Origin: a bacterium
GTDB lineage: Bacteria; Patescibacteriota; Minisyncoccia; JBDRLZ01
Direction: 5' to 3'
Length of the DNA: 41,914 nt
NCBI GenBank assembly: GCA_043812555.1
Contig: JBDRLZ010000010.1
Location: 1-41,914, forward strand
In this document: one piece after another, positions 5,785 through 37,341 of the stretch
How positions within the stretch are numbered: the first letter of the stretch is position 1
Layout of the letters: every line of letters starts with the position of its first letter
The notes under the pieces: generated by a model
Database searches by the model: none
What the model was told of the DNA's origin: nothing
The model's input: the letters and a program-made list of their open reading frames with translations, nothing else
Position numbers and translations under genes: made by a program

Positions 5785-6230
5785 ATTTTTACGGGATTTT
5801 TTAACATTGCTTTTTGCATAGCGTAAAAAACAAAAGTGCTGATTGTTAATTTTGGAATTGCATCGCCGATAATCGGAATCCAGCCGAACAGCGTTGTCAC
5901 AATTTTATTAACTGCCAAATTCTTTATTAATTTTTGCTTTTTATCAACACTAATGCCGCTTGAACTGCAATAGCTATACCAAACAAAATGCACAATATTA
6001 ATACCTGCTTCTGTCGCGTTCCAAATTGTTCCGCTAATTGCAACCCATACTCCAGCTGTAAGCAAAATCATTATGACATTAAACCAGCCAACAAGATCGC
6101 CAGGAATACTTGTAATCAGCATAAACCACGGAAACTTAACTTCTTCTTTTTGCTCTGTATCTTCAGGTAAATTTTTCTTTGCTTTTTCCCGCAGTTCTTT
6201 TAATCTATTTTTCCAGCTAACTTCACTCAT
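5781..6230 (-). CDS. hypothetical integral membrane protein
   Basis: 149 aa. A charged N-terminus is followed by 3-4 predicted TM segments. Overlaps the VirB4 gene by 8 nt. Confidence 0.6.
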   Translation of the reverse strand: MSEVSWKNRLKELREKAKKNLPEDTEQKEEVKFPWFMLITSIPGDLVGWFNVIMILLTAGVWVAISGTIWNATEAGINIVHFVWYSYCSSSGISVDKKQKLIKNLAVNKIVTTLFGWIPIIGDAIPKLTISTFVFYAMQKAMLKNPVKI

Positions 6231-7980
6231 TTTCTTGTTCTTGCGCTAATTCTTGCTTTGCCTTTTCTATTTCCAGCAACTGGGCTGGGTCAGAAGTGAT
6301 AACCTGGTCTTCAGCATAAGAAGCAACAACTCTGATTGCCGCGTGTTTTGGTCCGGCAAAAAATATTCCTTCGCCAACATTGCCCTCTAAAAGCAGATAT
6401 TTTTCTTCATCAGTCAGATAAAAAGTTTTTTGCAGTTCGTCAATTGCGGCCGGCGACTGCTTCATTAAAAGCCGCAAAGCTGAATTAGTTATAATCGGCT
6501 TGCCATAAGGCGAACTTACAAAATCAGTAATGTCTTGGGTAATTGTTGTTACGCCAAGATAATATTTGCGGGCTCTTTTAACAATACCGAACATAAACGA
6601 AGCGCCATCAGGATATTTCATCATCCACCAGGCCTCATCAACAATTAAAAGCCGCTTTTTTAATTCAGAACGGACCAAATTCCAGATATAATGCAAAATT
6701 AGATACATAGCAATTGGCCGCAATTCTTCTTCCATGTCGCGAATATTAAAGACAATTAATTTGTTTTTAGTTGAAATATTAGTCGGCTGGTTTAAAAATC
6801 CGGAAAAAGTGCCTTCAGTATATTTTTTAAGCCTTAGTCCTAATTCTTCAGCGCCGTCTATGTTGTTTAAAATAGTTTGAAAATCAGACATAGTAGGCAT
6901 TTCTTTGTTCTGCCAGCTTTCTTGAGGAATTATGTCTTTTAAAGCATAGGTCTGGATTAAAGCGCTATCTATAATCGCATCTTGTTCCGGGGTTAGTTTT
7001 GGGCCTTCAGTGGTTTTTTCGCCGAGCATAAGCCGCAAAAGACCAATTAAAGAAACGATATTATTTCTAAAGATATCTTCTGATTTTTCGTTTTCTTTTG
7101 GCTCAGGCAAATCAAACGGATTAATATGGTGCGCCGAAGATAAAGAAATTTTAACAAAAGCGCCGCCAGCTGTTTCAGTTAGATATTGGTATTCGTTTTC
7201 AGGATCAATAATAATCACATCAGTGCCGAGCATTAAAGAACGCAGAATTTCTAGTTTGCACAAATAAGACTTGCCAGCGCCGGAAGTTGCAAAAATTGTA
7301 AAATTAGCGTTTTCTAAGCTAAATCTGTCAAATAAAATTAAGCTGTTATTATGTCGATTAACGCCGTAGAGAATGCCGGTGTCAGAGCTTAAATCTGAAG
7401 AAATAAATGGAAAAGTTGAAGAAAGAGGTTCGGTATTTAAACTATTATGAATTAAGAGTTTGTCTTGAAGAAGCGGCGCAGTGGTTTTAAAGCCAATATC
7501 CATTTGGAATATAGCTGGTTTAATATAAACTAATCGGCTTTCAAAAACTTGCTTGATTCTGTCGCATTTTTTATCTAATTCTTCAATAGAGTTGGCGTAG
7601 ACAGTTATATAAAGCCCGAGCTTGAACATTCTCTCAATGCCTGTTTGGAGCTTGTCGCGCAAATCTTCCATATTTTTAATAGCGGCTTCAAGCTGGGGAT
7701 CGCGAACTTTGCCTTTTTCAGCCTCTGTTGATATTTGCGACTGGACTCTGGCTGTTTGTTTTTGCAAATTTTTTAAAATAACGCTGCTTTCCTCTGGGTA
7801 GATAAAAAGAGAAATGTCTGAACTGGTGTCTAAATTAACAACTGGCTCAAGCCAGCCAGCGTTAAGATAAGCCGGATATTCAAAAACAAAAAGTGTTCGA
7901 GAAAATTTCTCGCCTATTTGCAGATAATTGCTTTCTTTTTTTAAACTAGGCGGAGCAATTTGTTCTAGAAAATTAGTCAT
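6223..7980 (-). CDS. virB4: VirB4/TrbE-family conjugal-transfer-type ATPase, middle plus ATPase domains
   Basis: Walker A (FATSGAGKSY) and Walker B (RLLIVDEAW). The N-terminal IAPPSLKKESNYLQIGEKFSRTLFVFEYPAYLNAGWL matches the mid-region of Gram-positive VirB4 proteins (Tn916 Orf16 / CD1110 type). Confidence 0.9.
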   Translation of the reverse strand: MTNFLEQIAPPSLKKESNYLQIGEKFSRTLFVFEYPAYLNAGWLEPVVNLDTSSDISLFIYPEESSVILKNLQKQTARVQSQISTEAEKGKVRDPQLEAAIKNMEDLRDKLQTGIERMFKLGLYITVYANSIEELDKKCDRIKQVFESRLVYIKPAIFQMDIGFKTTAPLLQDKLLIHNSLNTEPLSSTFPFISSDLSSDTGILYGVNRHNNSLILFDRFSLENANFTIFATSGAGKSYLCKLEILRSLMLGTDVIIIDPENEYQYLTETAGGAFVKISLSSAHHINPFDLPEPKENEKSEDIFRNNIVSLIGLLRLMLGEKTTEGPKLTPEQDAIIDSALIQTYALKDIIPQESWQNKEMPTMSDFQTILNNIDGAEELGLRLKKYTEGTFSGFLNQPTNISTKNKLIVFNIRDMEEELRPIAMYLILHYIWNLVRSELKKRLLIVDEAWWMMKYPDGASFMFGIVKRARKYYLGVTTITQDITDFVSSPYGKPIITNSALRLLMKQSPAAIDELQKTFYLTDEEKYLLLEGNVGEGIFFAGPKHAAIRVVASYAEDQVITSDPAQLLEIEKAKQELAQEQENE

Positions 7981-9823: not shown

Positions 9824-11302
9824 TTAATAGTTTTTAATAATTTCTCTTAGAGCTTCTAATAGTTCTTGTTGGGTGGTGCATGTCCTCGCGGTTGTTCCAA
9901 TATTAATTGGATAAAGTGTAGCAATGCGCGCATGTCCTTCTTTGATAAATGCTTTGGCGGCGGCGGCGGCTTTTGCATTTGAAGCACCGCCTGCTACTGC
10001 AGAACCAGTATTAATATCAGGCAATAAATCAGCAGGGACTTTTCCTTCGTGTTCTCCGGCCAAAAAATTAACTTTAGCGCTCTTGGCTCGTTTTTGAGCT
10101 TGTGTTCCTCCTAGTTTATTAACCAGTGGAATTCTTCCAAGCGTTGCGCCGACTGCCGCGTCTCGCATGTAAGATAATCTTGTGCCTAATTTAGCCGCGG
10201 CGCCTGCTTCTTTGCCCTTTGCTCTAGCCGCTTTATAAGATTTTATAGCTTCTTGGACAGAAGTGTACCCGCTTGCTTTTTTCAACCCGGCTTGGGCCAT
10301 GCCGTAAATTTTTGCTCCGCCTTGCACTCCAAATTGCTTAGCCATAAGCAAACCGCCCAAAGTAAAGCCCAAAACCAGAATATATTGAATCAAATTATTG
10401 CCTGTTGAAAAAAACGACGAAACAGACGATTGCAAATTCGGAGCGGCAGTGCCTAAAGAATTTTTAAAGCTGTCAAAGCTGTCAGCTGTGCGCATAGCCA
10501 AGTACAAGAAAAAAGCAAAAGCCGGGGTAAATAATGCCCAGCTGATTAAACTTTTCCACCACTGCCCCCAATACTTTTCTGCTCCGGGAATAACCCGGCA
10601 TAAAAAGGCGGCCGGCGCGAAAATAGCCACAAAAGACAGAACAATTGCTCTGACAACAAGCAGCCCCGCTGCCAGCCAAATAACGATTAATGTCGCTAGC
10701 AAAACAACCACGCCCATAATCATATTGATTAAAAAATTTAGCGCTATATTTCCCGCGCTAACATTATTTCCAGCGGCTTGCCAAACCTTAGCAACGCCCA
10801 AACTGCCGACTAATTTTTGCGACATCTCCCAGTTGCCGACTCCTGATTGTTCAACAAAAAACTTAGTGAACAAATAACTCATGTCTAAGACAACATTAAC
10901 CAAAAGCATGCTGAAATTAACCAAAAGCGCGATAATAACCAGATTAACAAAAAGTTTTTTAGCGCCGTATTTCTCAATGCCTAAAATTGTTGAAATAGCA
11001 ATTGTTAATAATATAAAAATAAAGCTGATATTGGCAAGGTCGCGGATTATTTTCCAGCCCTCTGTAATAATCGGCAGATCGGTAATTTTCCAGCTTAAGA
11101 GCCAATCAAAAAGCGCGCCGCCAATATAAATGCCAAGACTTAATAATTGCATTATTAGCCAGACTATCCAGCCGAGAGTTGCGGTTAATGCTCCAGCAGT
11201 TACCGTGTCCCAGAAACCAGCTTGAGCTCTCGGCAGAAAAACAACAAAAATCAAACCTAAAGTCAGAGTTAAGATAAGAGTAAGTTTTTGATGTTTGGTC
11301 AT
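9824..11302 (-). CDS. VirB6/TrbL-like polytopic membrane protein
   Basis: 492 aa with a signal-like N-terminus, at least 6 TM helices and an Ala/Gly/Lys-rich C-terminal tail. Its position in a VirB4/PrgI locus supports the call. Confidence 0.6.
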   Translation of the reverse strand: MTKHQKLTLILTLTLGLIFVVFLPRAQAGFWDTVTAGALTATLGWIVWLIMQLLSLGIYIGGALFDWLLSWKITDLPIITEGWKIIRDLANISFIFILLTIAISTILGIEKYGAKKLFVNLVIIALLVNFSMLLVNVVLDMSYLFTKFFVEQSGVGNWEMSQKLVGSLGVAKVWQAAGNNVSAGNIALNFLINMIMGVVVLLATLIVIWLAAGLLVVRAIVLSFVAIFAPAAFLCRVIPGAEKYWGQWWKSLISWALFTPAFAFFLYLAMRTADSFDSFKNSLGTAAPNLQSSVSSFFSTGNNLIQYILVLGFTLGGLLMAKQFGVQGGAKIYGMAQAGLKKASGYTSVQEAIKSYKAARAKGKEAGAAAKLGTRLSYMRDAAVGATLGRIPLVNKLGGTQAQKRAKSAKVNFLAGEHEGKVPADLLPDINTGSAVAGGASNAKAAAAAKAFIKEGHARIATLYPINIGTTARTCTTQQELLEALREIIKNY

Positions 11303-12697: not shown

Positions 12698-15600
12698 CTA
12701 ATAACTCATGCCGCATTTTTTATCAGTTAAATCATCGCCATTCTTGATGCATTTACAAAACTCAAGGTTATCTTTTACTTGCTTTATTTCTTCTTGTGCT
12801 GCTTTAGAAGAGCTTATTCTTTTATAATCCTGTAATAATTGCTCTTCAGCTCCTAAATCAACCAAGCGCTCGGCTTCTGTTTTGTATTTTATTGCAAACT
12901 CTTTAGATTGTTTAATAATTTTTTCGAATTTTTGTTCAACCTTCCAATCGTAGCAACCTGCAGTTTCCGTGCATATTTTTATTTGTATAACTCCTTGTTC
13001 GAGGACTCGATTTCCTTTTTCGTCATATACCCAGTGCGGATAAATTTCATTAATATCAGGAATCGGTTTTGCGTCTTCTCTGTAAAGTTTTGACATTCTT
13101 TTCAACACCTTTTCCCAATATATTTGAGCTTCTAAACTTAATTCGAGACCAAGATCTCCTGTTTTTAATTTATCATTGAGTTTGTCAAGAGATATTTCAT
13201 AAATTGTTTTCATTTCATCTAGTATCTCTTGCTCATATTTCATTGATAACGCAGTATAATACACAAGCCATTGTTGTTGTCTTAATGTGCCGATATTGTT
13301 CCAAATTTCATCATCTAAATTCCAGCCCATCCAACTATCATTGTCTTGCAAATTTATAATATCCTCCATATTAATCATACTATATGGTTTGTTAAATTCA
13401 GGACTCATTTGAATTGAGCCGATTTCTTCTTCAAGCTCTACTAGTTTATTTTCTGCCCAACTGGGCTTTTGGACTTTGCCGCCCATGGCTCTGTATGGTC
13501 GGTTAGTGAGCGTTGCTTGTATTTTGATTATTGTTTTTTGCCAATCGCCATTTCCAAAACAACGAGCTTCTGGGTTTGCTGGTTGGCCGGTGATTGTCGG
13601 GTTTGTTGTGCCTTCGCCAGTGCAAGTTTTTTTCTTTTCATCCCACAGACAAACACCGGTGCTATCATAAGGAATACCTGCAGGATGGCTTTTGTAAGCG
13701 CAATCATCGCTTGTGTCAAGTACCCCCTCTGCTGTACAATCTGCTCCGATTGCATAGTCTGAACAATAACTATTTACTCCTTCGAGTATGTAATCCTTTT
13801 CCAGTTTACATAACTTTCCACAAGAGTCGCATTCCTCTGTGGCTCTTTCGCTCCATCCCGGAAATTTATCATCGCTCTTGCATATTGTTTCACATGTTTT
13901 ATTCTCATCATCTTCACATTTTTTATCTGTGCCGCAATAACGCACTTCACATGCTTCTTCGTCAGCCAGCTCTTTCATTTCTTCACACATTGTTTTTTCC
14001 TGATTTAAACATACTTTCCATTGGCACTTGGCCAATTTTTTTAATTCATCAAGGATTTTATTGGTAACTTCGGCGGCAGTAATACCCAAGCCTTTTAATT
14101 CGTCTCTTTGTTGTCTTTTAATATCAATTGCTTTTTGCAATAAAGTTATGGTGGTGTATTTGCTTCTGTTTTCAGTATCAGACATAATTTCGTCGATACC
14201 AGCATCTTGAGCAAGTCTATTTTCTTGATAAGTTTCGCAAGCTTGTCTTAATTGAGGGTTGTCTTTAAATTGGGCGCAAGGATCTATAGAAAGCTCTTCT
14301 TCTTCATCAGGAGTTAATTTATCAAAGCCCCAGCTAAAAGCCCTAAGTCCTTCTTTAATAATCCTGTTATAACTGGCATTGGCCAGGGCTTTTGTATAAG
14401 CCTCTACTTTTTCCGGTGGCAGTAAATAAGCAGCTGCTCCTGCAGCAGTGAGCTCGCCTTTTTTGCCTTCTGTTGAGAGATATTCTTCTACTAATTTAAG
14501 ATTTTCCTGGACTGCTCGTTTATAATCATCAGTCGCGAATTCACCGACCGAAGAACCCGGGGTTAAAACTTCTTCTCTGGTACAAACAAAACCAATGTTT
14601 TTAAGCAGGGCTATTTCGTTTTCTGTGCCAAATGTGCAAAGATTCAAATTATTCGGCCAATTTGCTGTGCATTCGCTTGTGTTGATTACGCCACATTTTT
14701 GAAACATATCAATTGTCGCCAAATCTACTACATCGTATGTTTCTTTTAAAAATTCTTTTCTAAATGTGTTTCTCACCTTGCGGCAATAAAAATTATCTAA
14801 ACCATTAATAGAATTTATAGTTTCGTCTGAAGGCCAGAGCATCTGGAGAGCCATAAATTCTATAACAGGAAACTTAGTTTCTGCTTCTGCTATTTTTCCC
14901 TCTAACTCGACAAGAGTATTTACCTGCCTAATAAATGTGCGGACTAGATCTGGGTTGCTCCATTCCATGCACTGTTTAGTTGATTTCCAGCCGCCGCTTG
15001 TTTCAAACTCTCTGATTGCTTCTTCTTCAGCTTTTGCAACCTGCACATTTTGAGCATCTATAGTTAATAAATACATGCCGTAAAAATTATTTTGCGGTTG
15101 AGTTATTTTCAGCCAGGAATCCCAGCCGCCTTCAAAATTTTCATAAAAACCTTCAAGATTATTTTCAATATCGCCTAAAGTGCATTCTGCTTCTTTATAA
15201 AATTGTTCTACATCATAGCGCTGGTGAGGCGAAAGAGACAGGGCTAATTCTTTTATTGGATTTTGTAATGGTTTGCATATTTTATCAGAGCCCACAAAAG
15301 TAGTAATAAATTTGGCTCCGGCCGCAGAGCCAGCTTCGCGTATGTAATCTCCTTGATTTTTAATGTACATCGATAGATTCGGCGCGTTTGGGTCCCCTTC
15401 AATTATGCCTGTTAAAGCGTCAACATTAGCATCAAGAAATTGTGTAGTGAATTTTTTGCTGGCTGAAAGAATAGAATTAGCTATTTTTGCTTTCCACCAT
15501 TCTGTATTGGCTAATTTTTGCTCCAAGAGATCTTTAGCCGCGAGATACGCTATATCTTTCATTTCTTTAACTACTGCCCAAATGAATTTACCTACTGTCG

Positions 15601-15742
15601 TAACAGCAGTTAAAAAAGAGGAAGGGCCAAGTGCTTCTGCTTTTTTGGGTCTAATAAGAATATTTAATGAAATATTTGCTAGTATTACCAAGATTAAAAG
15701 CAAAGCAACTGGTTTTTGGAGGTGATTGTTGCTAAAAATCAT
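12698..15742 (-). CDS. large membrane-anchored cysteine-rich surface protein, hypothetical
   Basis: 1014 aa. N-terminal TM anchor (VALLLILVILANISLNIL). The central region is Cys-dense (CQWKVC...CEVRYCGTDKKCEDDENKTCETICK...). No enzymatic motif recognised. Confidence 0.7.
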   Translation of the reverse strand: MIFSNNHLQKPVALLLILVILANISLNILIRPKKAEALGPSSFLTAVTTVGKFIWAVVKEMKDIAYLAAKDLLEQKLANTEWWKAKIANSILSASKKFTTQFLDANVDALTGIIEGDPNAPNLSMYIKNQGDYIREAGSAAGAKFITTFVGSDKICKPLQNPIKELALSLSPHQRYDVEQFYKEAECTLGDIENNLEGFYENFEGGWDSWLKITQPQNNFYGMYLLTIDAQNVQVAKAEEEAIREFETSGGWKSTKQCMEWSNPDLVRTFIRQVNTLVELEGKIAEAETKFPVIEFMALQMLWPSDETINSINGLDNFYCRKVRNTFRKEFLKETYDVVDLATIDMFQKCGVINTSECTANWPNNLNLCTFGTENEIALLKNIGFVCTREEVLTPGSSVGEFATDDYKRAVQENLKLVEEYLSTEGKKGELTAAGAAAYLLPPEKVEAYTKALANASYNRIIKEGLRAFSWGFDKLTPDEEEELSIDPCAQFKDNPQLRQACETYQENRLAQDAGIDEIMSDTENRSKYTTITLLQKAIDIKRQQRDELKGLGITAAEVTNKILDELKKLAKCQWKVCLNQEKTMCEEMKELADEEACEVRYCGTDKKCEDDENKTCETICKSDDKFPGWSERATEECDSCGKLCKLEKDYILEGVNSYCSDYAIGADCTAEGVLDTSDDCAYKSHPAGIPYDSTGVCLWDEKKKTCTGEGTTNPTITGQPANPEARCFGNGDWQKTIIKIQATLTNRPYRAMGGKVQKPSWAENKLVELEEEIGSIQMSPEFNKPYSMINMEDIINLQDNDSWMGWNLDDEIWNNIGTLRQQQWLVYYTALSMKYEQEILDEMKTIYEISLDKLNDKLKTGDLGLELSLEAQIYWEKVLKRMSKLYREDAKPIPDINEIYPHWVYDEKGNRVLEQGVIQIKICTETAGCYDWKVEQKFEKIIKQSKEFAIKYKTEAERLVDLGAEEQLLQDYKRISSSKAAQEEIKQVKDNLEFCKCIKNGDDLTDKKCGMSY

Positions 15743-29348: not shown

Positions 29349-30704
29349 TTAATTTGTGTATAACTTTTCTTTTATTAAATTAATTTCCTGTTCCAGAGAC
29401 TCATTTTTGAGCATTTCTTTTTTTATTTTTTTATAAGCGTGGATAGCGGTTGTGTGATCTCTTTGACCTAATTCCTGACCAATGCTCGGATAAGAAGTAT
29501 TCAACTCGCTGCGCATTAAATACATAGCAATCTGGCGTGGTTTGACAATATCTCTTTGCCGGCTTCTTTTTGACAAGTCTTTTATGTGGATATCATAGAA
29601 TTCAGCAACTTTCTTAGTTATTTGTTTTGTTGTTATAATCTTGGAACGGGGTTTAGAAACAATAGAACTCAGCATTTTGATAGCTTCGTTAAGCTTGGGC
29701 AGGCTGTTGTGAATCTGGGAATAAGCCAGAATGCAATTAAGAGCGCCTTCAAGTTCACGAATATTGTCTTGAACATTAGCAGCGATATATTCAAGAATCT
29801 TATTATCCAAATTTATTTTTCTCTCTCCTGTTTTTTTTCTTATAATAGCCAGCCTTGTTTCAAAATCAGGCGTGCTAATATCAGCAATCATCCCGCCCTC
29901 AAACCTTGAGCGCAGACGCTCCTCTAGTGTTCTGATCGCTTTTGGCGGCCGGTCTGAAGAAATAACTATTTGTTTATTGTCATTATAAAGGGCGTTAAAT
30001 GTGTGGAAAAATTCTTCTTGGGTTGTTTCTTTGCCGCTGATAAACTGAATATCATCAATAAGCAGAATATCGGTTTGCCTGTAAATTTCTTTAAAATTTT
30101 TTGTTTGCTTGTGCTGGATAGCGTCAACTAATTCGTTTGTAAATCTTTCAGATGGGACATAGCTAACTCTTTTTTTAGGGCCTTGCCGGGCAAGTTCGTT
30201 ACCGATTGCCTGCAAAAGATGGGTTTTGCCGAGCCCGACTCCGCCGTAAATAAAAAGAGGATTATAGCTTTTACCTAGATTTTTACAGACTGCCAAGCTG
30301 GCTGCATAAGCTATTTCATTAAAATGTCCAACAATAAAGTTGTCAAAAGTATAACGATGGTTGAGGCTGATATTCGGGATATTTGATGCGAGCGTGTCTT
30401 GAGTAATTTCTGTTTTTTTCTCTTCGGCGATAAAAGTTCTTGGCCGGCCAATCGCATATTTTATTTCTCTAATATCTGGGTAAAACTTTTGGATAACTCT
30501 GAGGATAAGCTTGTGATATTTATTCTCGAGCCATTCTTTGGTAAAACCATTGGGCACAGAAATTAAAATTTCTTTTTTGTCCTGCTCTTCTATGGATGTG
30601 TCTTTGAACCAAGTAACAAAGTTAGCGCTTGAAACCTGCAATTCCAGTTCACCCAAGATTGTTTGCCAAAGCTCTTTGTTGTTCATTAATAAATATTTTA
30701 TCAT
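29349..30704 (-). CDS. dnaA: chromosomal replication initiator protein DnaA
   Basis: Walker A (GGVGLGKTHLL), Walker B (LLIDDIQF), sensor motifs, and a domain IV DNA-binding signature (RDHTTAIHAY). The start could also be the Met at 30686. Confidence 0.95.
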   Translation of the reverse strand: MIKYLLMNNKELWQTILGELELQVSSANFVTWFKDTSIEEQDKKEILISVPNGFTKEWLENKYHKLILRVIQKFYPDIREIKYAIGRPRTFIAEEKKTEITQDTLASNIPNISLNHRYTFDNFIVGHFNEIAYAASLAVCKNLGKSYNPLFIYGGVGLGKTHLLQAIGNELARQGPKKRVSYVPSERFTNELVDAIQHKQTKNFKEIYRQTDILLIDDIQFISGKETTQEEFFHTFNALYNDNKQIVISSDRPPKAIRTLEERLRSRFEGGMIADISTPDFETRLAIIRKKTGERKINLDNKILEYIAANVQDNIRELEGALNCILAYSQIHNSLPKLNEAIKMLSSIVSKPRSKIITTKQITKKVAEFYDIHIKDLSKRSRQRDIVKPRQIAMYLMRSELNTSYPSIGQELGQRDHTTAIHAYKKIKKEMLKNESLEQEINLIKEKLYTN

Positions 30705-30784: not shown

Positions 30785-30820
30785 CTTTACAAATTTAATG
30801 AGGTATGGTAGGGTGAAAAT
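30785..30820 (+). promoter_or_regulatory. promoter/operator-like element, copy 1 (TTTACA-17-TAGGGT with TGn extension)
   Basis: CTTTACAAATTTaatgAGGTaTGGTAGGGTGAAAAT. 31 of 36 nt are identical to 36383-36418. Confidence 0.55.
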
Positions 30821-30887
30821 GCTAGTATTTGCTAGCGTTTTTAAATTTCAGCAGTTCTTTGAAAACTTAAAAAGGGAGGTTGTGGAA

Positions 30888-31850
30888 GTGCTTTATTCAG
30901 ACGAACAAAGGTTTTGCAGTTATTGTATTAATCCGGCAGATTTAGGAGTTTTAAACCCAACCACAGGCAAGATATTAAATTTCCATTCTGGTAATGACGA
31001 TTTATTTTGTGAAATTTGTTATGAGATATTTAGAGATAATAAATTTCCAGAAAGGTCGTATTTTGACCAGGAATGGAATGATTATTTGTCAGCTCGTCCC
31101 AAATTATTATTTGCTTATTCTGGTGGCTTGGATAGCACCGTAGTTTTAGCTCTTCTGGTAGAGTCGTGCAGGCAAAAAAATATTGATTTGGAAATATTCA
31201 CTATCAAAACTGGGGTTAAGGGGAGCAAAACTCATAATAATATTGATGCTGTGCTTAATTGGCTTAATATAAGAGATAATCATTTTTATGTTGATATTCA
31301 AGATGAAAATCAAGACAGTGGGGTTTCAACATTGAATGTTTATTTGCAATGCTTTAAAGCAGGCATATTGCCTTGCGGCAAGATATGCAATTCAATAATA
31401 GACCATGTATATCAGAGTATAATGCAAGAGCGCGGACATAAAGAGTTGATAACTGGCGGAGACACTCCAAAGCTTAATAAATTCAGAAAATATTCTTTAT
31501 TTTGGGAAAAATCAAATGGATTGGTTGTTGTTCGAGGGGGCTATGCGTTTAATCTTTCAAAAAAGTTTAACAGAGACTTTGTTGAAGAGCATAATATTCC
31601 GTGGATTAATCCTGAATGCGGCGGATATGACACTGATTGTTTGGTGCCAGGAGCTTTTTTTAGGAGAAAACTGCAAGGAAATAGAAAGATTTCTCTAAAA
31701 AAAGTGATTTCTGAATTTCCAATTATTTTGGATTATTTAGCGGAAAGGGCGAGATTTGGAGTTTATGATCGAAATGAAGCTTTATTTTTACTGACCCATG
31801 TTGATATTGCGAGCCTGTCCTCATATGAGGAATTTAATCAGATATCTTAA
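30888..31850 (+). CDS. PP-loop (adenine nucleotide alpha-hydrolase) ATPase with an N-terminal CxxC...CxxC zinc ribbon
   Basis: SGGLDST PP-loop, N-terminal CSYC-x27-CEIC and an internal PCGKICNS. I chose GTG 30888 as the start because AGGGAGG lies 8 nt upstream. In-frame ATG 30819 and GTG 30756 are alternatives. Confidence 0.75.
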   Translation: MLYSDEQRFCSYCINPADLGVLNPTTGKILNFHSGNDDLFCEICYEIFRDNKFPERSYFDQEWNDYLSARPKLLFAYSGGLDSTVVLALLVESCRQKNIDLEIFTIKTGVKGSKTHNNIDAVLNWLNIRDNHFYVDIQDENQDSGVSTLNVYLQCFKAGILPCGKICNSIIDHVYQSIMQERGHKELITGGDTPKLNKFRKYSLFWEKSNGLVVVRGGYAFNLSKKFNRDFVEEHNIPWINPECGGYDTDCLVPGAFFRRKLQGNRKISLKKVISEFPIILDYLAERARFGVYDRNEALFLLTHVDIASLSSYEEFNQIS

Positions 31851-31864
31851 AGGAGTTGATATTA

Positions 31865-33115
31865 ATGGAAGCAAAGCTGTTGCATCATCTAGGCGTTCCT
31901 TGCATTGCTTCAATAAGAGATTTTGATAAAAATCCATATCAAGAAGATAAAATTTTTTATCTAAACCCCGAAGCTATCATTCGGTATGAACCAGAAGGAG
32001 CAACAATAATACCGCCAATGTTCTATTCTTCTTTTCTTTGGGTTGATGAAGATTTGGCAAATTTATTAAAAAGAAAAGGAGTTCAAGCAAAAGGTGTTCC
32101 ACGGGGAGCAATTTCTCTTTTACTAGAAAACAAGGTTATTTTAGAGAATCAATCCAGTAGGTCATTTAGAGAATTTCATGTTGATGTCAGTGGTTTACCA
32201 ACGCAAGTCCTTCTTGATGTCACTTCTGCATGCACTTGCAACTGCGTTGCCTGTTATCATACTAAGGATTTAATCGGGCATATGCCCTCTATTGAAGACC
32301 TTAAAAGAAGAATCGCAAAGCTAAGGCAGTTAGGGTTAGGATTATTTGAGGTTACGGGCGGAGAGCCATTTCTCAGAGATGATTTGAATTTAATACTAAG
32401 TTATATTTATGATCTGGGATTGCATTTCTATGTGGTCACAAACGGCGAATTATTAACCAGCATAAAGCCAGAAATGATTAATATTTTAAAGCGCGGCTTG
32501 GGAGTTGCAGTTAGCTTGGACGGAGTCGGGGCTTTGCATGACGGCATCAGACAAAATCCTGGTTTGTATGATAAACTAATAAGAGGTTTGGACTTGCTTT
32601 TTTTAGAAGGAATACAAATTTATTTAATTTCAACTATTAATGAGATTAATATAGGTTGTATTTCAGAAATGATACAAGTTGCCAAGAAATACGAAACAAC
32701 ACTGCATATCCGTCCGACTATCAGGACTGGGAACGCATTGATTAATAATTTAGGAAGTGTTGATTTGCGGGAGCAACTCCAGCCATTTTTAAGAGACGAG
32801 AATGTTAGAAATGGTTTGCTTAGCACTAAAAAAAGCATACCGCTAGCCAAGTATTATGGTTGTGGTATAAGAAAGAGAATTTCTGTCAACAGCAAAGGAT
32901 TGCTATATCCTTGTGTTATGGACAGAGATAGCAGTTGTGATAATATTAAAAATTACACAAGAGAAAATTTAGTAAAAACTTTAAAAACCGAAACAAGCTA
33001 TTTTCTTGATGCACACAATAAATGCCGAGAATGTGGGGTGAACCAAAAACAAGATATAGTTTGCGGAGGATTTTGCAGGTTTTCTAATTCTTATGCAAAA
33101 GGAATAAAGCCATGA
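31865..33115 (+). CDS. radical SAM/SPASM peptide-maturase-like enzyme 1, with a ~110-aa N-terminal extension (possible fused RRE)
   Basis: CTCNCVAC (CxxxCxxC). C-terminal Cys motifs (GCGIRKRISVNSKGLLYPC...CRECG...CGGFC). Start at ATG 31865, 9 nt after AAGGAG. Confidence 0.85.
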   Translation: MEAKLLHHLGVPCIASIRDFDKNPYQEDKIFYLNPEAIIRYEPEGATIIPPMFYSSFLWVDEDLANLLKRKGVQAKGVPRGAISLLLENKVILENQSSRSFREFHVDVSGLPTQVLLDVTSACTCNCVACYHTKDLIGHMPSIEDLKRRIAKLRQLGLGLFEVTGGEPFLRDDLNLILSYIYDLGLHFYVVTNGELLTSIKPEMINILKRGLGVAVSLDGVGALHDGIRQNPGLYDKLIRGLDLLFLEGIQIYLISTINEINIGCISEMIQVAKKYETTLHIRPTIRTGNALINNLGSVDLREQLQPFLRDENVRNGLLSTKKSIPLAKYYGCGIRKRISVNSKGLLYPCVMDRDSSCDNIKNYTRENLVKTLKTETSYFLDAHNKCRECGVNQKQDIVCGGFCRFSNSYAKGIKP

Positions 33116-33873
33116 AAGACAGAAATACAACTCAACAAAACAACTACCATGTAATTGCTCGTTTTTATGACGACTTAATGGGTGAGAAAAAATATTTAAT
33201 TTGGGGTGATATAATTGCAGATGTTGTCGCAAAATATAAAATTCCAAAAGGTATTTGTATTGATGTTGCTTGCGGAACAGGCAACATCTCTCAAATATTG
33301 TTAAAGCAAGGATTTGCAGTCGTGGGAGTTGACAGGTCAAAGTACATGCTAGCGATAGCTAAAAAAAAATTACCTCAAGTTGATTTTGTATGTTCAGATA
33401 TTCGCGATTTTGAATTAAAACAGAAGAATGAGGTGGTATTTGCGGTCTCTTTTTATGACTCTTTGAATTATTTGCTGACAGATAAAGATATACTATCTGC
33501 TTTTCAGGCTATTGCTAGAAATATGCCTTCAGGAACTATTTTTCTGTTTGATATGAACACGAGAGAGCACATACTGGTCTCTCAAAAGAATAAACCAAGA
33601 GTGTTTGAATATGATGATTTTTATTCTATCTTTCGCTTTGGCGGAGAAAATCGGATTTGGACGATTGATATGGATTTTTTCATCAAACAGCCTGATGGCA
33701 AATTTCAGCTAATTAAAGAACATCACAAAGAGAGAGCTTATGATGAAAAAGACACGACTCCCTTGTTTCAGAAAGTTGGCTTTGAATTACTAGAAGTTCG
33801 TAGTGAAAACAAGGTCTATGAGGATGGTAAAGAACATTTAAGTAGATTATATTTTATTGTTAAGAGGAGGTGA
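33112..33873 (+). CDS. class I SAM-dependent methyltransferase 1
   Basis: Motif I CIDVACGTGNIS and post-I VVGVDRS. ATGA overlap with the upstream gene. Confidence 0.85.
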   Translation: MKDRNTTQQNNYHVIARFYDDLMGEKKYLIWGDIIADVVAKYKIPKGICIDVACGTGNISQILLKQGFAVVGVDRSKYMLAIAKKKLPQVDFVCSDIRDFELKQKNEVVFAVSFYDSLNYLLTDKDILSAFQAIARNMPSGTIFLFDMNTREHILVSQKNKPRVFEYDDFYSIFRFGGENRIWTIDMDFFIKQPDGKFQLIKEHHKERAYDEKDTTPLFQKVGFELLEVRSENKVYEDGKEHLSRLYFIVKRR

Positions 33874-33878
33874 TATAA

Positions 33879-34007
33879 TTGAAAATCCGACAGTCAAAAA
33901 AGGCAGTCAACAAGCAGAATGTTAACAAAGCAAAACTTAAGCAGGTTAACTGGAAGATGTCGGTAGCAAACTTTTTAAAGAACGGGTGTTTAATAAACGG
34001 AGATTAA
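33879..34007 (+). CDS. candidate RiPP precursor peptide (42 aa, TTG start), absent from the supplied ORF track
   Basis: AGGAGGTGA sits 5-8 nt upstream of TTG 33879. Translation: (M)KIRQSKKAVNKQNVNKAKLKQVNWKMSVANFLKNGCLINGD. The N-terminal part is Lys-rich and leader-like, and a single Cys lies near the C-terminus. A hairpin terminator follows. Confidence 0.5.
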   Translation: MKIRQSKKAVNKQNVNKAKLKQVNWKMSVANFLKNGCLINGD

Positions 34008-34034
34008 AAATAAATCTGTTCTTTAAAAAATAAT

Positions 34035-34081
34035 CAGCCTTTCTGTTGTAGTAAATTAAGCAGAAAGGCTGTCCTTATTTT
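34035..34081 (+). terminator. intra-operon rho-independent terminator/attenuator after the small ORF
   Basis: CAGCCTTTCTG (34035-34045) pairs perfectly with CAGAAAGGCTG (34061-34071). TCCTTATTTT follows. Confidence 0.7.
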
Positions 34082-34096
34082 AGGGAGGCGAATAAA

Positions 34097-34318
34097 ATGC
34101 TTAACCCAAGAGTTAGCTTTGCAGAGAAAAACGGAGTTTGTGCTATTTATTTAGACTTTGATTTTTGGTTTTTGTGGGATGAGCCAGCAATTTGGTTTAA
34201 AAAAATCGCTGAGTCTCCTACAACTACAACATTGTCTAATTCTGATATCCCAGACGACTTTATGGAGTTTCTAAAAACAAATCAAATCTTGATTAAGGAG
34301 ATGATCCAAGATGTTTGA
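34097..34318 (+). CDS. PqqD-like small protein (candidate stand-alone RiPP recognition element)
   Basis: 73 aa with AGGGAGG 8 nt upstream. The pattern RVSFAEKNGVCAIYLDFDFWFLWDEPAIWFKKI resembles the PqqD beta-strand/helix core. Overlaps the next rSAM gene by 8 nt. Confidence 0.55.
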   Translation: MLNPRVSFAEKNGVCAIYLDFDFWFLWDEPAIWFKKIAESPTTTTLSNSDIPDDFMEFLKTNQILIKEMIQDV

Positions 34319-35384
34319 TATGTGCGGATTCAGCTATAATGAATTATTCAATCTGGCTGTTTCCAAGCCAATGATGGCACAGATTAAGCTGACTGATAAC
34401 TGCGAGCAGAATTGTATTTTCTGCATGGCTAGTTGCGATTCTAAAAAGCAAGCAATTGATATGCCCGCTAAAAACTGGTTTAAAATTCTTCTAAAACTGA
34501 AAAACTTAGGAGTGAGCAAGTTGAATTTTACTGGCGGGGAAGTTTTTCTGTATAGCGAAGTCGCAAAGGTATTTGCTTTTGCAAAAGAACAGGGTTTTGT
34601 TATTAGCCCAAGCTCTGATGGATTAACTAGCGTCGTTAAATTTAAAGGTTACATTGATGAAATTTCGTTTTCGGTTCACGGTACAGGCGAAATTCATGAC
34701 AACGTGGTCAGTTGCGAGGGGTCTTTTGAAAAAGTTGCAAAACATATTCAAGAAGCAATTAATTTGGGAATCAGGGTATCGCTGAACACTGTTTTGGCAA
34801 AAGATAATTATAATTACTTTGAAGATGTTTACGACTACTTCAAGGATTTAGGCATTTCTTTTCACTCATTTCCTATTGCAATTAATGCTATTAGCGGTAT
34901 TGATTGCGGTTCGCAGATATTGGATTTAGACAGAGGATTGTTTCTGGACTATTTGGATAAACTAAGAAAGATGTTGCCTGAAAGACTTTCTTGCAAGCAC
35001 GGCCTTGGTGTGATTATGCAAAATAATCCTGAATATTATCAAGAAACAAGAGTGCCATTGCCTGATTGTGCTGGAGGAAAATATAAGCTGGTGATTGAAG
35101 CCGACGGCAGTGTTTATCCATGTAATTTTTTCAGAACGCAAAATTATTATTGTGGAAATATTTTGTATGATAATGAGTTTGAGATTTGGCGTAAAGGCAG
35201 GGGATTTCAGTCTTTTAGAAGATTGATATTAGAAGAAAAAATTCCAAGCAAATGCCGAAGCTGCATTAAAAAATATAAATGCTTTTCTGGATGCAGAGCT
35301 TGGATCCAGAATTACCGACAGGGAGGGTTTTACAATGAAGCAGATTTGCGATGCGAACTTGGGAATGCATATGTTGGAACTTGA
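34311..35384 (+). CDS. radical SAM/SPASM enzyme 2
   Basis: CEQNCIFC cluster. SPASM motif CAGGKYKLVIEADGSVYPC...CRSCIKKYKCFSGC. Confidence 0.88.
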   Translation: MFDMCGFSYNELFNLAVSKPMMAQIKLTDNCEQNCIFCMASCDSKKQAIDMPAKNWFKILLKLKNLGVSKLNFTGGEVFLYSEVAKVFAFAKEQGFVISPSSDGLTSVVKFKGYIDEISFSVHGTGEIHDNVVSCEGSFEKVAKHIQEAINLGIRVSLNTVLAKDNYNYFEDVYDYFKDLGISFHSFPIAINAISGIDCGSQILDLDRGLFLDYLDKLRKMLPERLSCKHGLGVIMQNNPEYYQETRVPLPDCAGGKYKLVIEADGSVYPCNFFRTQNYYCGNILYDNEFEIWRKGRGFQSFRRLILEEKIPSKCRSCIKKYKCFSGCRAWIQNYRQGGFYNEADLRCELGNAYVGT

Positions 35385-36318
35385 AATAACTCACAGGTGC
35401 AATTTGGATTGCAAGATGTGCTATATTTCTGAAAAACGCCAAGTAGATATGCCAACAGAAACTATTAAGCAACTAATTAATTTCGCATTTAAAAATAATG
35501 TTGCCTATTTAGTTATTACTGGTGGCGAAGCTCTTTTGCATCCTGAATTTCCTGAATTATCTAAATATCTTCAGGGTTTAAAAATTAATAGCGCGACAAG
35601 AGTTGTCTTGCATTCAAACAGCATTTTAATTGACGACAATACACTACCGCTGTTAAAGCCTTTTGGCTTAATTCATTTAAGCTTTGATTTAGTGGATTTT
35701 TTGAGAAAAGAGATTAGCCATGTTTTAGATAAGGCTAATCTCTTGAAAGAAGCTGGAATTAATTGTTATCTTTTTGCAACTATCCACAAATGTAATATGC
35801 ATTTGATTGATGAAATAATACAGACATCTCAAAACGAGAAAATAGACCTTGGCTTAAATGTTATGCAACCGAATACTAGAAGTATTGATTATGCTTTATC
35901 TAAACCCGAGTTTTGGCAAGTGAGCAAAAAAATATTTGAGCTAGAAAAACAAGGCTTAATATTGCGCTACACTTGTCCATTGACAGCTATACTGGCAAAT
36001 AAAAAATTAAAAAATTACGGTGGGGTCCAGGGCGGATGCACAGCAGGCATTGCTTCTTGCTCTGTGCTTCCAAATGGCGAAGTTGTGCCGTGCCCATTTT
36101 TTAGAATTCCTGCAGGGAATATTGCAAACGACAGATTAGAAAATATTTGGCTTAAAAGTGATTTATTTGCGGTTTTACGAAACCGGCCTGAATACGCAGA
36201 ACCCTGCGGTTCTTGTGAATATTTATCATTCTGCGGAGGTTGCAGAAGCCGTGCTTATAAAGCACGCGAATCACTTACAGCATGCGACCCAATGTGCCCT
36301 TTTGTTGCGGAGGGATAA
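35335..36318 (+). CDS. radical SAM/SPASM enzyme 3
   Basis: CNLDCKMC cluster. SPASM motif GCTAGIASCSVLPNGEVVPC...CGSCEYLSFCGGC. The start may be Met 35365 or 35371. Overlaps enzyme 2. Confidence 0.88.
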   Translation: MKQICDANLGMHMLELEITHRCNLDCKMCYISEKRQVDMPTETIKQLINFAFKNNVAYLVITGGEALLHPEFPELSKYLQGLKINSATRVVLHSNSILIDDNTLPLLKPFGLIHLSFDLVDFLRKEISHVLDKANLLKEAGINCYLFATIHKCNMHLIDEIIQTSQNEKIDLGLNVMQPNTRSIDYALSKPEFWQVSKKIFELEKQGLILRYTCPLTAILANKKLKNYGGVQGGCTAGIASCSVLPNGEVVPCPFFRIPAGNIANDRLENIWLKSDLFAVLRNRPEYAEPCGSCEYLSFCGGCRSRAYKARESLTACDPMCPFVAEG

Positions 36319-36382
36319 AAGATTAAAAAAACAAACTACTCAGAGTAAAAATTGGCTTTGGGTGGTTTTTTCTTTGACAACC

Positions 36383-36418
36383 CTTTACAAATTTTCCTAG
36401 GTGTGGTAGGGTGAAAAT
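36383..36418 (+). promoter_or_regulatory. promoter/operator-like element, copy 2
   Basis: CTTTACAAATTTtcctAGGTgTGGTAGGGTGAAAAT has the same geometry as copy 1. It lies ~65 nt upstream of the SD-supported ATG 36483. Confidence 0.55.
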
Positions 36419-36482
36419 AAGAGTGAACGTTGAAAATAAAACTTGTGTACTTGGAAAATTCAATATAAAAGGAGGATTTAGA

Positions 36483-37310
36483 ATGTATGCTGATGTTGAT
36501 GCTTTAATAAGGCCCATCCCAGCAGACAAGGAGTTAGAACTACATCCAACAAAGCAAAAATTATTCCAATTATGGGAAGAATATGGCAAGATTAATTACA
36601 ATAATTGGTATAAACTTAGTTTTTTCAAAGAGATTAAAAAAACTCTTGAAGGGATGTTTGTTCCGGTTGGAAACGGCGGGAGTGTGCTGGATGCCGGGTG
36701 CGGACCAGGCACAATGTTCGAGTCTATTTTGAATAAAATGTGGCCGAGAACATTGGTCGGTGCTGATATTTCAAACACTATGCTTAGAAAGGCTGAAAAA
36801 ACAGCGAGAGAGCTGATAAGTCCTCACCTAAAAGTGTTTGACATCAAGAAAATTGATCTAACCGAAACATTGCCATGGGAAGATGACGAATTTGATGCTA
36901 TTGTGTCAAACATCGTGATTTATTACTTGACTGATCCGGGCTGGTCTCATGCAGTTCGCGAGTTTTGCCGCGTCACAAAACATGGAGGACATATTTATGT
37001 TTCCACTCTTTTAGAGGGATGCGATCAGACCGCTCTTATTAAAGAGAATAAATGGAAACTAGAGACGCTTTTTGGCTCGCCCTTTGGATTTATTAATCTT
37101 TTATGGGCGCTAAGACACAAAAAATATCCTGCAATGATCAATGAATGCGCTAAAGAAGCCGGTGTGCGCTATCCAAGCCGTGAAGGACTGTTGAGTCTGT
37201 TAAAAAAGTCAGGAGTAGACGAGATTGTCACCAGAGATATTTTTTGGGGAGCGGGCATAGCTGTCAAAGCTAAGATGAGCAAAATCGCAACAAATTATCG
37301 GCTGAGATAA
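36483..37310 (+). CDS. class I SAM-dependent methyltransferase 2
   Basis: Motif I VLDAGCGPGTM. Start at ATG 36483, 7 nt after AAGGAGG. The ORF-track GTG 36411 lies inside the putative -10 element. Confidence 0.8.
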   Translation: MYADVDALIRPIPADKELELHPTKQKLFQLWEEYGKINYNNWYKLSFFKEIKKTLEGMFVPVGNGGSVLDAGCGPGTMFESILNKMWPRTLVGADISNTMLRKAEKTARELISPHLKVFDIKKIDLTETLPWEDDEFDAIVSNIVIYYLTDPGWSHAVREFCRVTKHGGHIYVSTLLEGCDQTALIKENKWKLETLFGSPFGFINLLWALRHKKYPAMINECAKEAGVRYPSREGLLSLLKKSGVDEIVTRDIFWGAGIAVKAKMSKIATNYRLR

Positions 37311-37341
37311 AATCAACCTATCTCAGCCTTTTCTTTTTTTT
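37300..37341 (+). terminator. rho-independent terminator closing the cluster
   Basis: GGCTGAGATA (37300-37309) pairs with TATCTCAGCC (37319-37328). TTTTCTTTTTTTT follows. Confidence 0.8.

Follow-up and report, generated by a model that had tools for sequence, protein, structure and literature searches.

What product does a compact row of radical-enzyme genes make in a bacterium of the Patescibacteriota? The row occupies positions 30785-37341 of the stretch of DNA analyzed here (the window, 41,914 nt; assembly GCA_043812555.1, contig JBDRLZ010000010.1), with all genes co-directional on the + strand, directly beyond the divergent dnaA (29349-30704) and dnaN. A first-pass annotation had taken it for a system that makes ribosomally synthesized peptides with post-translational modifications (RiPPs) and fits no named class. 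Our analysis agrees: the peptide is conserved, a small protein has the fold of a RiPP recognition element (RRE), the nearest solved relatives of two radical S-adenosylmethionine (SAM) enzymes, rSAM2 and rSAM3, are peptide-modifying enzymes, and no curated cut-off is reached. The block is thus very probably a RiPP-type peptide-maturation operon of an undescribed family, one of the RRE/radical-SAM kind with an obligatory PP-loop enzyme. Wherever the peptide occurs, one PP-loop ATP pyrophosphatase and two radical-SAM/SPASM enzymes are encoded with it. In the searchable full-text literature on radical-SAM/RiPP systems of the candidate phyla radiation (CPR), and on PP-loop proteins together with RiPPs or SPASM enzymes, the system is undescribed, and a compendium of RiPP radical-SAM enzymes mentions neither Patescibacteria nor the PP-loop. 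The genes on which the argument turns are these:

30888-31850, + strand: PP-loop ATPase gene; GTG start at 30888 after AAAGGGAGG, matching the N-termini of homologues
31856-33115, + strand: rSAM1 gene; likely true start ATG at 31865, with AGGAG 9 nt before it
33112-33873, + strand: MT1 gene, for a class I SAM methyltransferase; 4-nt overlap with rSAM1
33879-34007, + strand: open reading frame (ORF) of the 42-residue peptide; TTG start with a strong Shine-Dalgarno (SD) sequence, AGGAGGTGAT, 6 nt before it
34097-34318, + strand: ORF of the 73-residue RRE-fold protein; 8-nt overlap with the start of rSAM2
34311-35384, + strand: rSAM2 gene, for a radical-SAM/SPASM enzyme; core component
35335-36318, + strand: rSAM3 gene, for a radical-SAM/SPASM enzyme; core component; 50-nt overlap with rSAM2, as in homologous loci

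The peptide reads MKIRQSKKAVNKQNVNKAKLKQVNWKMSVANFLKNGCLINGD; its N-terminus is variable and its last 18 residues are conserved. The earlier annotation had proposed the short ORF as a precursor-like gene, to be doubted if homologous neighbourhoods never contained one. All related loci with sufficient sequence have it, in 24 distinct versions of 27 to 51 residues whose ending is W-x-[MLI]-x9-C-x2-N-x-[D/N]-stop. Constraint is confined to the last 18 residues (W-x-[MLI]-x-[VAI]-x2-[FVL]-x4-C-x2-N-x-[D/N]-COOH), and the N-terminal part is free to differ in charge and in length (8-33 residues). W at position -18, C at -6, and N at -3 are invariant in the 21 tabulated peptides; position -1 is D in 16 and N in 5 of them, and -7 is G in 17. 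Three further loci also match the pattern, and one version carries an additional GPG tail. When 690 kb were scanned in six frames, 14 unrelated control loci included, the regular expression of the motif matched inside the clusters only. Since synonymous codons are used at the invariant residues (TGT 15 and TGC 8 times, AAT 13 and AAC 10 times, and all four Gly codons) and all three kinds of stop codon occur at a fixed position, selection acts on the translated peptide and not on an RNA element. Strong SD sequences precede many of the copies. Judged by this pattern of codons and residues, the ORF is a conserved, translated gene, and it shows what is expected of a RiPP precursor: conservation beside modifying enzymes, with constraint at the amino-acid level. 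Searches of Pfam, NCBIfam, and PDB profiles returned no match for the peptide.

How constant is the company that this peptide keeps? Neighbourhoods taken from assemblies, GTDB genomes, and JGI metagenomes were compared by tblastn and ORF scans. In the window and about 14 independent loci the order is PP-loop, rSAM1, MT1, peptide, small protein, rSAM2, rSAM3 (type A), and this gene set and order are kept in CPR loci at just 40-56% protein identity. Type B loci (L005, L031/L041, L039, and L061) have peptide, small protein, rSAM2, rSAM3, and PP-loop in this order or in permutations of it, and are without rSAM1 and MT1. The divergent loci L010/L037, L011/L038, L012, L013/L040, and L036 are without the small RRE-fold protein. 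The gene content of these loci points to an invariant core of peptide, rSAM2, rSAM3, and PP-loop enzyme, which is kept in the rearranged versions too. All-against-all clustering of the flanking ORFs gave no additional family common to more than a few loci. With the usual caution on metagenome binning, the RRE-less versions are probably archaeal, because a thermosome gene (L013 466-2121; 765 bits, cut-off 400) lies 6 kb from one cluster, an STT3/AglB-type oligosaccharyltransferase gene (L012 6740-9775) lies 2 kb from another, and L010-L013 are labelled archaea in GTDB, one of them Woesearchaeota. The system probably spans CPR bacteria and at least one archaeon (DPANN-like). No relative of it was found in IMG/VR, and a phage-borne system was rejected on that ground.

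Is there a recognition element for the peptide? For the 73-residue protein, which the annotation had called PqqD-like, the likeness held in fold and failed in sequence: no match to Pfam (PqqD included), NCBIfam, or PDB sequences was obtained even at E<=10. The family evolves fast, and a single-sequence search found 2 homologues where a profile search found 46, all of 61-90 residues and all unannotated. An AlphaFold2 (AF2) model from a 40-sequence alignment has a mean predicted local distance difference test score (pLDDT) of 84.9 and shows three beta strands followed by helices. Nearly all of its Foldseek matches in the PDB are RREs, namely McbB, TbiB1 with bound leader, lasso B1, the PbtF RRE, ThcOx, MccB, LynD, and CteB. 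At a length of 73 residues these matches predictably have little statistical weight (E 0.2-2); for TbiB1 the template-modelling (TM) score is 0.67-0.69 at a probability of 0.96-0.98. By its predicted fold, then, the protein is an RRE of the PqqD-like kind. What is expected of a RiPP pathway in this respect is found at the level of fold only, with leader binding predicted. At the bacterial loci, which have the small protein, its gene is translationally coupled to rSAM2. rSAM1 has, in addition, a conserved N-terminal extension of about 110 residues, which gave chance matches only in the PDB profile search. Aligned with the 73-residue family by hhalign, it scored weakly (E 0.001, probability 21%, 65 collinear columns), and a fused RRE is plausible from this alignment.

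The PP-loop enzyme is the unusual partner. No Pfam or NCBIfam model exceeds its cut-off on this protein: ATP_bind_3 of Pfam scores 21.5 bits, below its cut-off of 27, Asn_synthase 16.8 bits against 21, and the LarE and TilS models 16-22 bits against cut-offs of 94-606. The PP-loop identity is secure from an invariant SGGxDS motif and from an AF2 model of pLDDT 95.4 that matches PP-loop enzymes. An alignment of 30 homologues shows residues 78-83 (SGGLDS), C163 and C167 (PCGKxCN), and C251 to be invariant and C244 nearly so (CGGYDTDC). The N-terminal CxxC...CxxC ribbon is at least 90% conserved; with the motif and the confident model, it bears out the earlier call of a Zn-ribbon PP-loop ATPase. 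The top Foldseek matches are TtuA, MnmA/TrmU, [4Fe-4S]-LarE, NcsA, and the Legionella N-acetyl-sugar amidotransferase (8wex). In a PDB profile search, TilS, LarE, NcsA, and TtuA aligned via the PP-loop region only. This makes the protein an ATP pyrophosphatase in a new, narrow subfamily: an exhaustive search by hidden Markov model (HMM) of 1.84 billion cluster representatives gave 26 clusters at E<=1e-30 and 45 at E<=1e-10. There are 106 homologues of about 300-340 residues, and those that carry a name are all from Patescibacteria/CPR bins (Falkowbacteria, Moranbacteria, Paceibacterota, Absconditabacterales). Remote full-length relatives keep the ribbon, SGGxDS, CxxxC, and the last Cys, which makes three Cys. 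Their positions resemble those in TtuA, and Fe-S-mediated sulfur transfer is by this analogy an attractive inference, although a structural metal site would suit them just as well. Two such relatives stand in other arrangements, P0160 with methyltransferase, PP-loop, LuxE, and LuxC genes, and P0167 (L063 2554-3459) with radical-SAM, FTCD_C, FolD, and PP-loop genes. Both contexts are unrelated to the cluster and shed no light on the chemistry.

What do the radical-SAM enzymes themselves resemble? The annotation had counted three SPASM enzymes. The Pfam Radical_SAM domain was found in rSAM1, rSAM2, and rSAM3 at 48-63 bits (55.6 in rSAM2 and 62.8 in rSAM3), and the Pfam SPASM domain in rSAM2 (40.0 bits) and rSAM3 (40.8 bits) only (cut-off 21.5). 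The count therefore stands for these two, and rSAM1 is a SPASM-like variant that lacks a Pfam SPASM match. Beside its C126-x3-C130-x2-C133 motif it has six C-terminal Cys (C336, C353, C390, C393, C403, and C407; C-x16-C ... C-x2-C-x9-C-x3-C), invariant in 10 orthologues. rSAM2 combines C31-x3-C35-x2-C38 with eight conserved C-terminal Cys (20 sequences), and rSAM3 combines C22-x3-C26-x2-C29 with seven, so that both show the CX3CX2C cluster and the seven to eight Cys of a SPASM enzyme. The nearest solved structures are PqqE, SkfB, and SuiB for rSAM2 and the same three with CteB for rSAM3, PqqE being the closest for both (E about 1e-12 to 1e-13). For rSAM1 they are BlsE, GDGT-MAS, and SkfB, which match the radical-SAM core only.

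Against the curated families of NCBIfam (June 2026 release), no enzyme of the cluster reaches any cut-off, and all matches are generic and far below. The best model is AhbD for rSAM1 (69 bits, cut-off 500), PqqE for rSAM2 (82 bits, cut-off 381), and NirJ2/AhbD for rSAM3 (120 bits, cut-off 500). In the order rSAM1, rSAM2, rSAM3, MftC (TIGR03962, cut-off 265) scores 52.6, 72.9, and 77.6 bits and PqqE (TIGR02109, cut-off 381) scores 35, 82, and 71 bits. The anaerobic sulfatase maturase anSME (TIGR03942, cut-off 349) gives 50.4 and 46.1 bits for rSAM2 and rSAM3. The best curated sactipeptide maturase is StsB for rSAM1 (62 bits) and rSAM2 (73 bits; cut-off 625 for both) and AlbA for rSAM3 (62 bits, cut-off 850). 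AlbA scores span 54-62 bits, PapB gives 43 bits against 340, and SkfB, nif11, and SCM are also far under their cut-offs.

Several memberships were rejected accordingly. PqqE is excluded by its cut-off and by the lack of E-x3-Y and of pqqB/C, and MftC and mycofactocin by the cut-off and by the lack of GVY and of MftD/E/F genes in any neighbourhood. The haem enzymes AhbC/AhbD/NirJ were set aside because the best score, 120 bits, compares with cut-offs of 500-650 and no tetrapyrrole genes are linked; anSME fell short of its cut-off, and no sulfatase gene is present. A known sactipeptide or ranthipeptide maturase was rejected as well, all models being below cut-off and the core having one invariant Cys, but the thioether reaction itself is possible. 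An anti-phage defence system was also dismissed, since in PADLOC the viperin models match the radical-SAM core generically (40-59 bits), alongside matches to methyltransferase domains.

The same comparisons bear on the idea that the radical-SAM and PP-loop enzymes act on a tetrapyrrole, a nucleoside or tRNA, or a lipid, the short ORF being incidental or regulatory. The best curated matches of rSAM3 (NirJ2/AhbD) and rSAM1 (AhbD/AhbC) are haem enzymes, the best solved relative of rSAM1 is the nucleoside decarboxylase BlsE, and the structural neighbours of the PP-loop protein act on tRNA or nicotinate nucleotide. These scores are, however, 4- to 10-fold under the curated cut-offs, and no genes of a haem or nucleoside pathway are linked. 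Moreover, a peptide constrained at the amino-acid level is present at all loci with enough sequence, and the RRE-fold protein is translationally coupled to rSAM2. A confident place of the rSAM enzymes in non-peptide families, which the annotation had named as evidence against a RiPP, was sought by profile HMM and no such curated family claimed them. We regard a non-peptide pathway as extremely unlikely.

MT1, which matches Pfam Methyltransf_25/11, adjoins rSAM1 in all type A loci; the two always occur together, and only there. At L058 (9017-11017) they are fused into a single protein of 666 residues, a fusion that supports their joint action. By their distribution, rSAM1 and MT1 are an accessory pair of the system. 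As a separate observation, rSAM3 is split into two ORFs at L007 (14441-15398) and L059 (12054-13051); a frameshift or sequencing error may be the cause, and some copies may be decaying.

How far do known systems account for this combination? Mycofactocin (MftA/MftB/MftC) offers the closest set of likenesses: a short precursor, a separate small PqqD-type RRE beside a SPASM radical-SAM enzyme, a methyltransferase that can occur, usually no dedicated exporter, and modified residues that lie at the final few positions of the C-terminus, as predicted for our system. It differs in its tail (G-V-Y in place of C-x2-N-x-[D/N]) and in MftD, MftE, and MftF, which are not in the cluster; our system, in turn, has two to three radical-SAM enzymes and a PP-loop ATPase, and is confined to CPR bacteria and DPANN-like archaea. 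The pathway to pyrroloquinoline quinone (PQQ; PqqA/PqqD/PqqE) likewise has a discrete RRE partner and a product made from a small peptide, with PqqE as the nearest solved structure, whereas the cluster here is without E-x3-Y, PqqB, PqqC, and PqqF. The sactipeptide and ranthipeptide maturases (AlbA, SkfB, CteB, PapB, StsB) are RRE-guided SPASM enzymes that act on Cys-containing cores, and SCIFF-type systems are, like the present one, conserved and often without an exporter. In contrast to these, our system has one core Cys, an obligatory PP-loop ATPase, and no protease or transporter at most loci.

On the side of the PP-loop enzyme, TtuA, NcsA/Ncs6, [4Fe-4S]-LarE, and 8wex have the PP-loop fold with SGGxDS and an N-terminal Zn ribbon, and the TtuA type also has CxxxC with one distal Cys; their positions here are comparable to those of the cluster ligands of TtuA. 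The difference lies in the partner genes, which here are peptide-modifying and not of tRNA or cofactor pathways; our protein is a candidate for Fe-S binding. The lasso cyclase (asparagine-synthetase/PP-loop) and MccB are ATP-consuming enzymes that act on Asp/Asn or a C-terminal carboxylate of an RRE-bound precursor, which is what we propose here. MccB is of the E1/ThiF type and not a PP-loop protein; lasso systems have lasso B and protease genes that the cluster lacks, and the Asn_synthase score here is below cut-off. To our knowledge, the combination of SPASM enzymes with an Fe-S PP-loop enzyme has not been described for any RiPP.

How might these proteins act on the peptide? The amphipathic W-x-M-x-V-x2-F segment would be the recognition sequence, which the 73-residue RRE would bind as a beta strand, as would probably the RRE-like extension at the N-terminus of rSAM1. 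This binding would present a very short C-terminal core, G-C-L-I-N-G-D (general form G-C-x-x-N-x-[D/N]), to the enzymes. rSAM2 and rSAM3 would each use a 5'-deoxyadenosyl radical and two auxiliary Fe-S clusters to modify it. For one of the two SPASM enzymes, the most likely reaction would be formation of a thioether between the invariant Cys and a carbon atom in either the invariant Asn or the terminal Asp/Asn, for which the Cys-Asp thioether cross-links of PapB (PMC9413430) are a precedent. The second SPASM enzyme would perform a different radical reaction. By converting ATP to AMP and pyrophosphate, the PP-loop enzyme would activate one of the core's carboxyl or carbonyl groups; the sole carboxylate common to peptides ending in D and in N is the C-terminal alpha-carboxylate. 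It would then replace or trap the activated oxygen. Fe-S-mediated sulfur insertion, giving a thiocarboxylate or thioamide, would be favoured by the three conserved Cys, as in TtuA, NcsA, and [4Fe-4S]-LarE, with intramolecular cyclisation as the alternative outcome. At type A loci, rSAM1 and MT1 would contribute an extra radical modification and a methylation.

Several points weigh against this account. Every reaction in it is assigned by analogy. The structural matches of the PP-loop protein are weak (TM 0.35-0.55, 11-20% identity), and C163, C167, C244, and C251 could just bind structural zinc. The core offers a single Cys to two or three radical-SAM enzymes, which means that not all of these can be forming thioethers. 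The probably archaeal loci have no RRE gene and still keep the invariant Trp; since it persists there, the Trp may be a reaction partner and not (only) a recognition residue. The extension of rSAM1 is RRE-like at that hhalign probability of 21% only, and no leader peptidase is conserved across the loci. The boldest form of the proposal is that the two SPASM enzymes and an Fe-S PP-loop enzyme rebuild the C-x-x-N-x-D/N tail, by sulfur insertion or ring closure at the activated C-terminal carboxyl, into a small cofactor-like or signalling product shared horizontally between episymbiotic CPR bacteria and DPANN-type archaea. In this full form we hold it to be unlikely.

Where would the product go? 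No exporter or protease gene lies near the block within the window, and to the annotation this had looked more like an intracellular peptide-derived cofactor than a bacteriocin. The first statement holds for the window and for most related loci, where none was found either; some related loci, however, do carry adjoining ATP-binding cassette (ABC) transporter genes. Two ABC-2 permease genes stand directly 5' of the peptide at L031/L041, with an ABC ATPase gene downstream, an ABC/MacB pair lies 1.4 kb downstream of the cluster at L059, and a gene for a C39 peptidase is near it at L062. At these loci a secreted bioactive peptide is at least as compatible with the neighbours. There are also hints of mobility: L001 and L002 have the same cluster sequence with different downstream contexts (beyond about 5700), the cluster at L002 adjoins Rep (REP_ORF2-G2P) and serine recombinase genes, and the genes upstream at L031 (1528-3277) include PIN and rve integrase genes. 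With the family rare and patchy, its contexts unrelated, and ABC genes beside some relatives, the step from a missing exporter to an intracellular cofactor is not supported.

The underlying idea deserves separate weighing, namely that the tail is rebuilt as in mycofactocin or PQQ, freed by a non-dedicated hydrolase, and used in the cell as a cofactor or other small molecule. Constraint falls on a very short core at the extreme C-terminus, right after the recognition segment, and MftA is built likewise. A discrete PqqD-like RRE is present, an exporter or protease was not found in the window or at most loci, the core residues do not vary between bacteria and an archaeon, and Amidohydro_2 genes beside several clusters other than type A could release the product. 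On the other hand, the family is very rare and patchily distributed, with 26 clusters (E<=1e-30) in 1.84e9 representatives, and no client oxidoreductase or consumer gene is co-conserved in any neighbourhood. The contexts are unrelated and at times contain mobile-element genes, ABC transporters occur at some loci, and the MftC and PqqE models score far under their cut-offs. We consider a cofactor doubtful. An accessory bioactive peptide is somewhat more likely, because the distribution is patchy and mobile-looking, and the transporter-type neighbours together with the rarity of the family favour an accessory, transferable trait.

Other neighbours recur at the loci without rSAM1 and MT1. At most of these, aminoacyl-tRNA synthetase (aaRS) genes adjoin the cluster (L031 9198-11714; L039 235-3363 and 3392-5806; L061 11742-14180; L013 4312-7191; L005 5978-7510). 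They encode ValRS at L031/L041, L039, and L061 and IleRS at L039 and L013, all above the NCBIfam cut-offs, and a CysRS-type enzyme at L005. The neighbouring synthetases of 800-840 residues were tried as LeuRS on a weak Pfam match to its editing domain, a reading rejected in favour of ValRS by NCBIfam. This adjacency could be inherited synteny or mark a self-resistance copy. Four loci have Amidohydro_2 genes, mutually very divergent, after the cluster (L005 10948-12380; L013 10882-11796; L039 10290-11225; L061 9218-11714). A GNAT acetyltransferase gene adjoins the cluster at L005 and is fused to rSAM3 at L061 (488 residues), and a Peptidase_S66 gene lies three genes further downstream at L005. 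The Amidohydro_2 and GNAT proteins may be alternative tailoring enzymes.

These neighbours permit a further explanation, a secreted Trojan-horse peptide directed against an aaRS. The PP-loop enzyme would make an activated or nucleotide-linked C-terminus, and the aaRS, GNAT, and S66 neighbours would protect the producer. Microcin C has such immunity enzymes, MccE (GNAT) and MccF (S66 peptidase). ValRS or IleRS genes abut the cluster at L031/L041, L039, L061, and L013 and a CysRS-type gene does so at L005, GNAT is beside the cluster or fused to rSAM3, an S66 gene is close by at L005, and the ABC-2 permeases and ABC ATPase at L031 bracket both the cluster and its ValRS gene. Yet none of the 15 type A loci, the window included, has an adjacent aaRS, GNAT, or S66 gene. 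Synthetases are housekeeping genes in dense, small genomes, so that the ValRS adjacency may be the synteny of one lineage, and the aaRS neighbours are candidate second copies only. The GNAT-rSAM3 fusion resembles a tailoring enzyme more than an immunity enzyme, and no MccB-like E1 enzyme is present. This explanation is highly improbable in our view.

At one Moranbacteria-like contig (L056 4088-6603), a second radical-SAM/SPASM pair (436 and 344 residues) followed by a 50-residue ORF lies 1.4 kb upstream of the cluster, and Amidohydro_2, class II aaRS, and GNAT genes stand just past it. This pair may belong to another peptide-modifying system.

Why would such small genomes keep the operon? The genomes of CPR bacteria and DPANN archaea are minimal, and little biosynthesis is generally expected of these organisms. 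An operon of five to seven genes with up to three Fe-S radical enzymes, kept whole through 40-55% protein divergence and on both sides of the divide between bacteria and archaea, implies a product of real value to episymbionts. No curated model exists for the precursor, the PP-loop subfamily, or the RRE family. SPASM enzymes and a PP-loop ATP pyrophosphatase that converge on a C-terminal core of about six residues offer a defined way into new peptide chemistry that can be tested, and the cluster is a good lead to such chemistry. The minimal set, one peptide and four proteins, is small enough for heterologous reconstitution.

The remaining features of the block concern its transcription and the last gene:

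30785-30820, + strand: promoter-like element, copy 1; 68 nt 5' of the PP-loop start codon
34035-34085, + strand: hairpin with a 13-bp stem and U-rich tail after the peptide gene (-28.4 kcal/mol, z -5.6)
36333-36378, + strand: terminator-like hairpin with U-run after rSAM3 (z -3.0); closes the conserved operon
36383-36418, + strand: promoter-like element, copy 2; 65 nt 5' of the MT2 ATG
36483-37310, + strand: MT2 gene, for a class I methyltransferase; ATG at 36483 after AAAGGAGG (longer ORF from 36411)
37300-37341, + strand: intrinsic terminator with a 10-bp stem and U-run after MT2 (z -5.1)

The features described in the annotation were all present at the positions given or within a few bases, including the promoter-like element that opens the block and the terminator that closes it. 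The 36-nt element occurs in exactly two copies in the 42-kb window, where none was expected from 100 shuffles; 31 of the 36 bases are identical, and TTTACA-N17-TAGGGT lies inside the repeat. It presumably acts as a promoter, and its copies before the cluster and before MT2 suggest co-regulation or a common regulator site. The annotation had placed terminators after the small ORF and after MT2, and both were recovered; the one after rSAM3 is our correction. The hairpin behind the peptide gene is likely a partial terminator that raises the ratio of peptide to enzyme transcript. It is not kept in related loci, where the gap is just 6-30 nt.

Because of the hairpin after rSAM3, MT2 is its own transcription unit. 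It has a class I methyltransferase domain by Pfam and no homologue at any related locus by tblastn, and was rejected as a component of the system, being specific to the window and separately transcribed. Of the two methyltransferases first assigned to the system, MT1 thus remains, conserved with rSAM1; MT2 is possibly co-regulated with the cluster via the common promoter-like element.

Elsewhere in the window, a protein with a pilin domain of the type IV secretion system (3559-5103, - strand) and a VirB4/TraG-type ATPase (6223-7980, - strand) are type IV secretion-like. Near them lie ORFs of 1014 residues (12698-15742, - strand) and 492 residues (9824-11302, - strand) that have no Pfam match. 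A tRNA-Ile with anticodon UAU stands beside a tRNA-Val(GAC) (1743-1815 and 1820-1894, both - strand). A UAU tRNA-Ile is unusual in bacteria, in which AUA is normally read by a lysidine-modified CAU tRNA.

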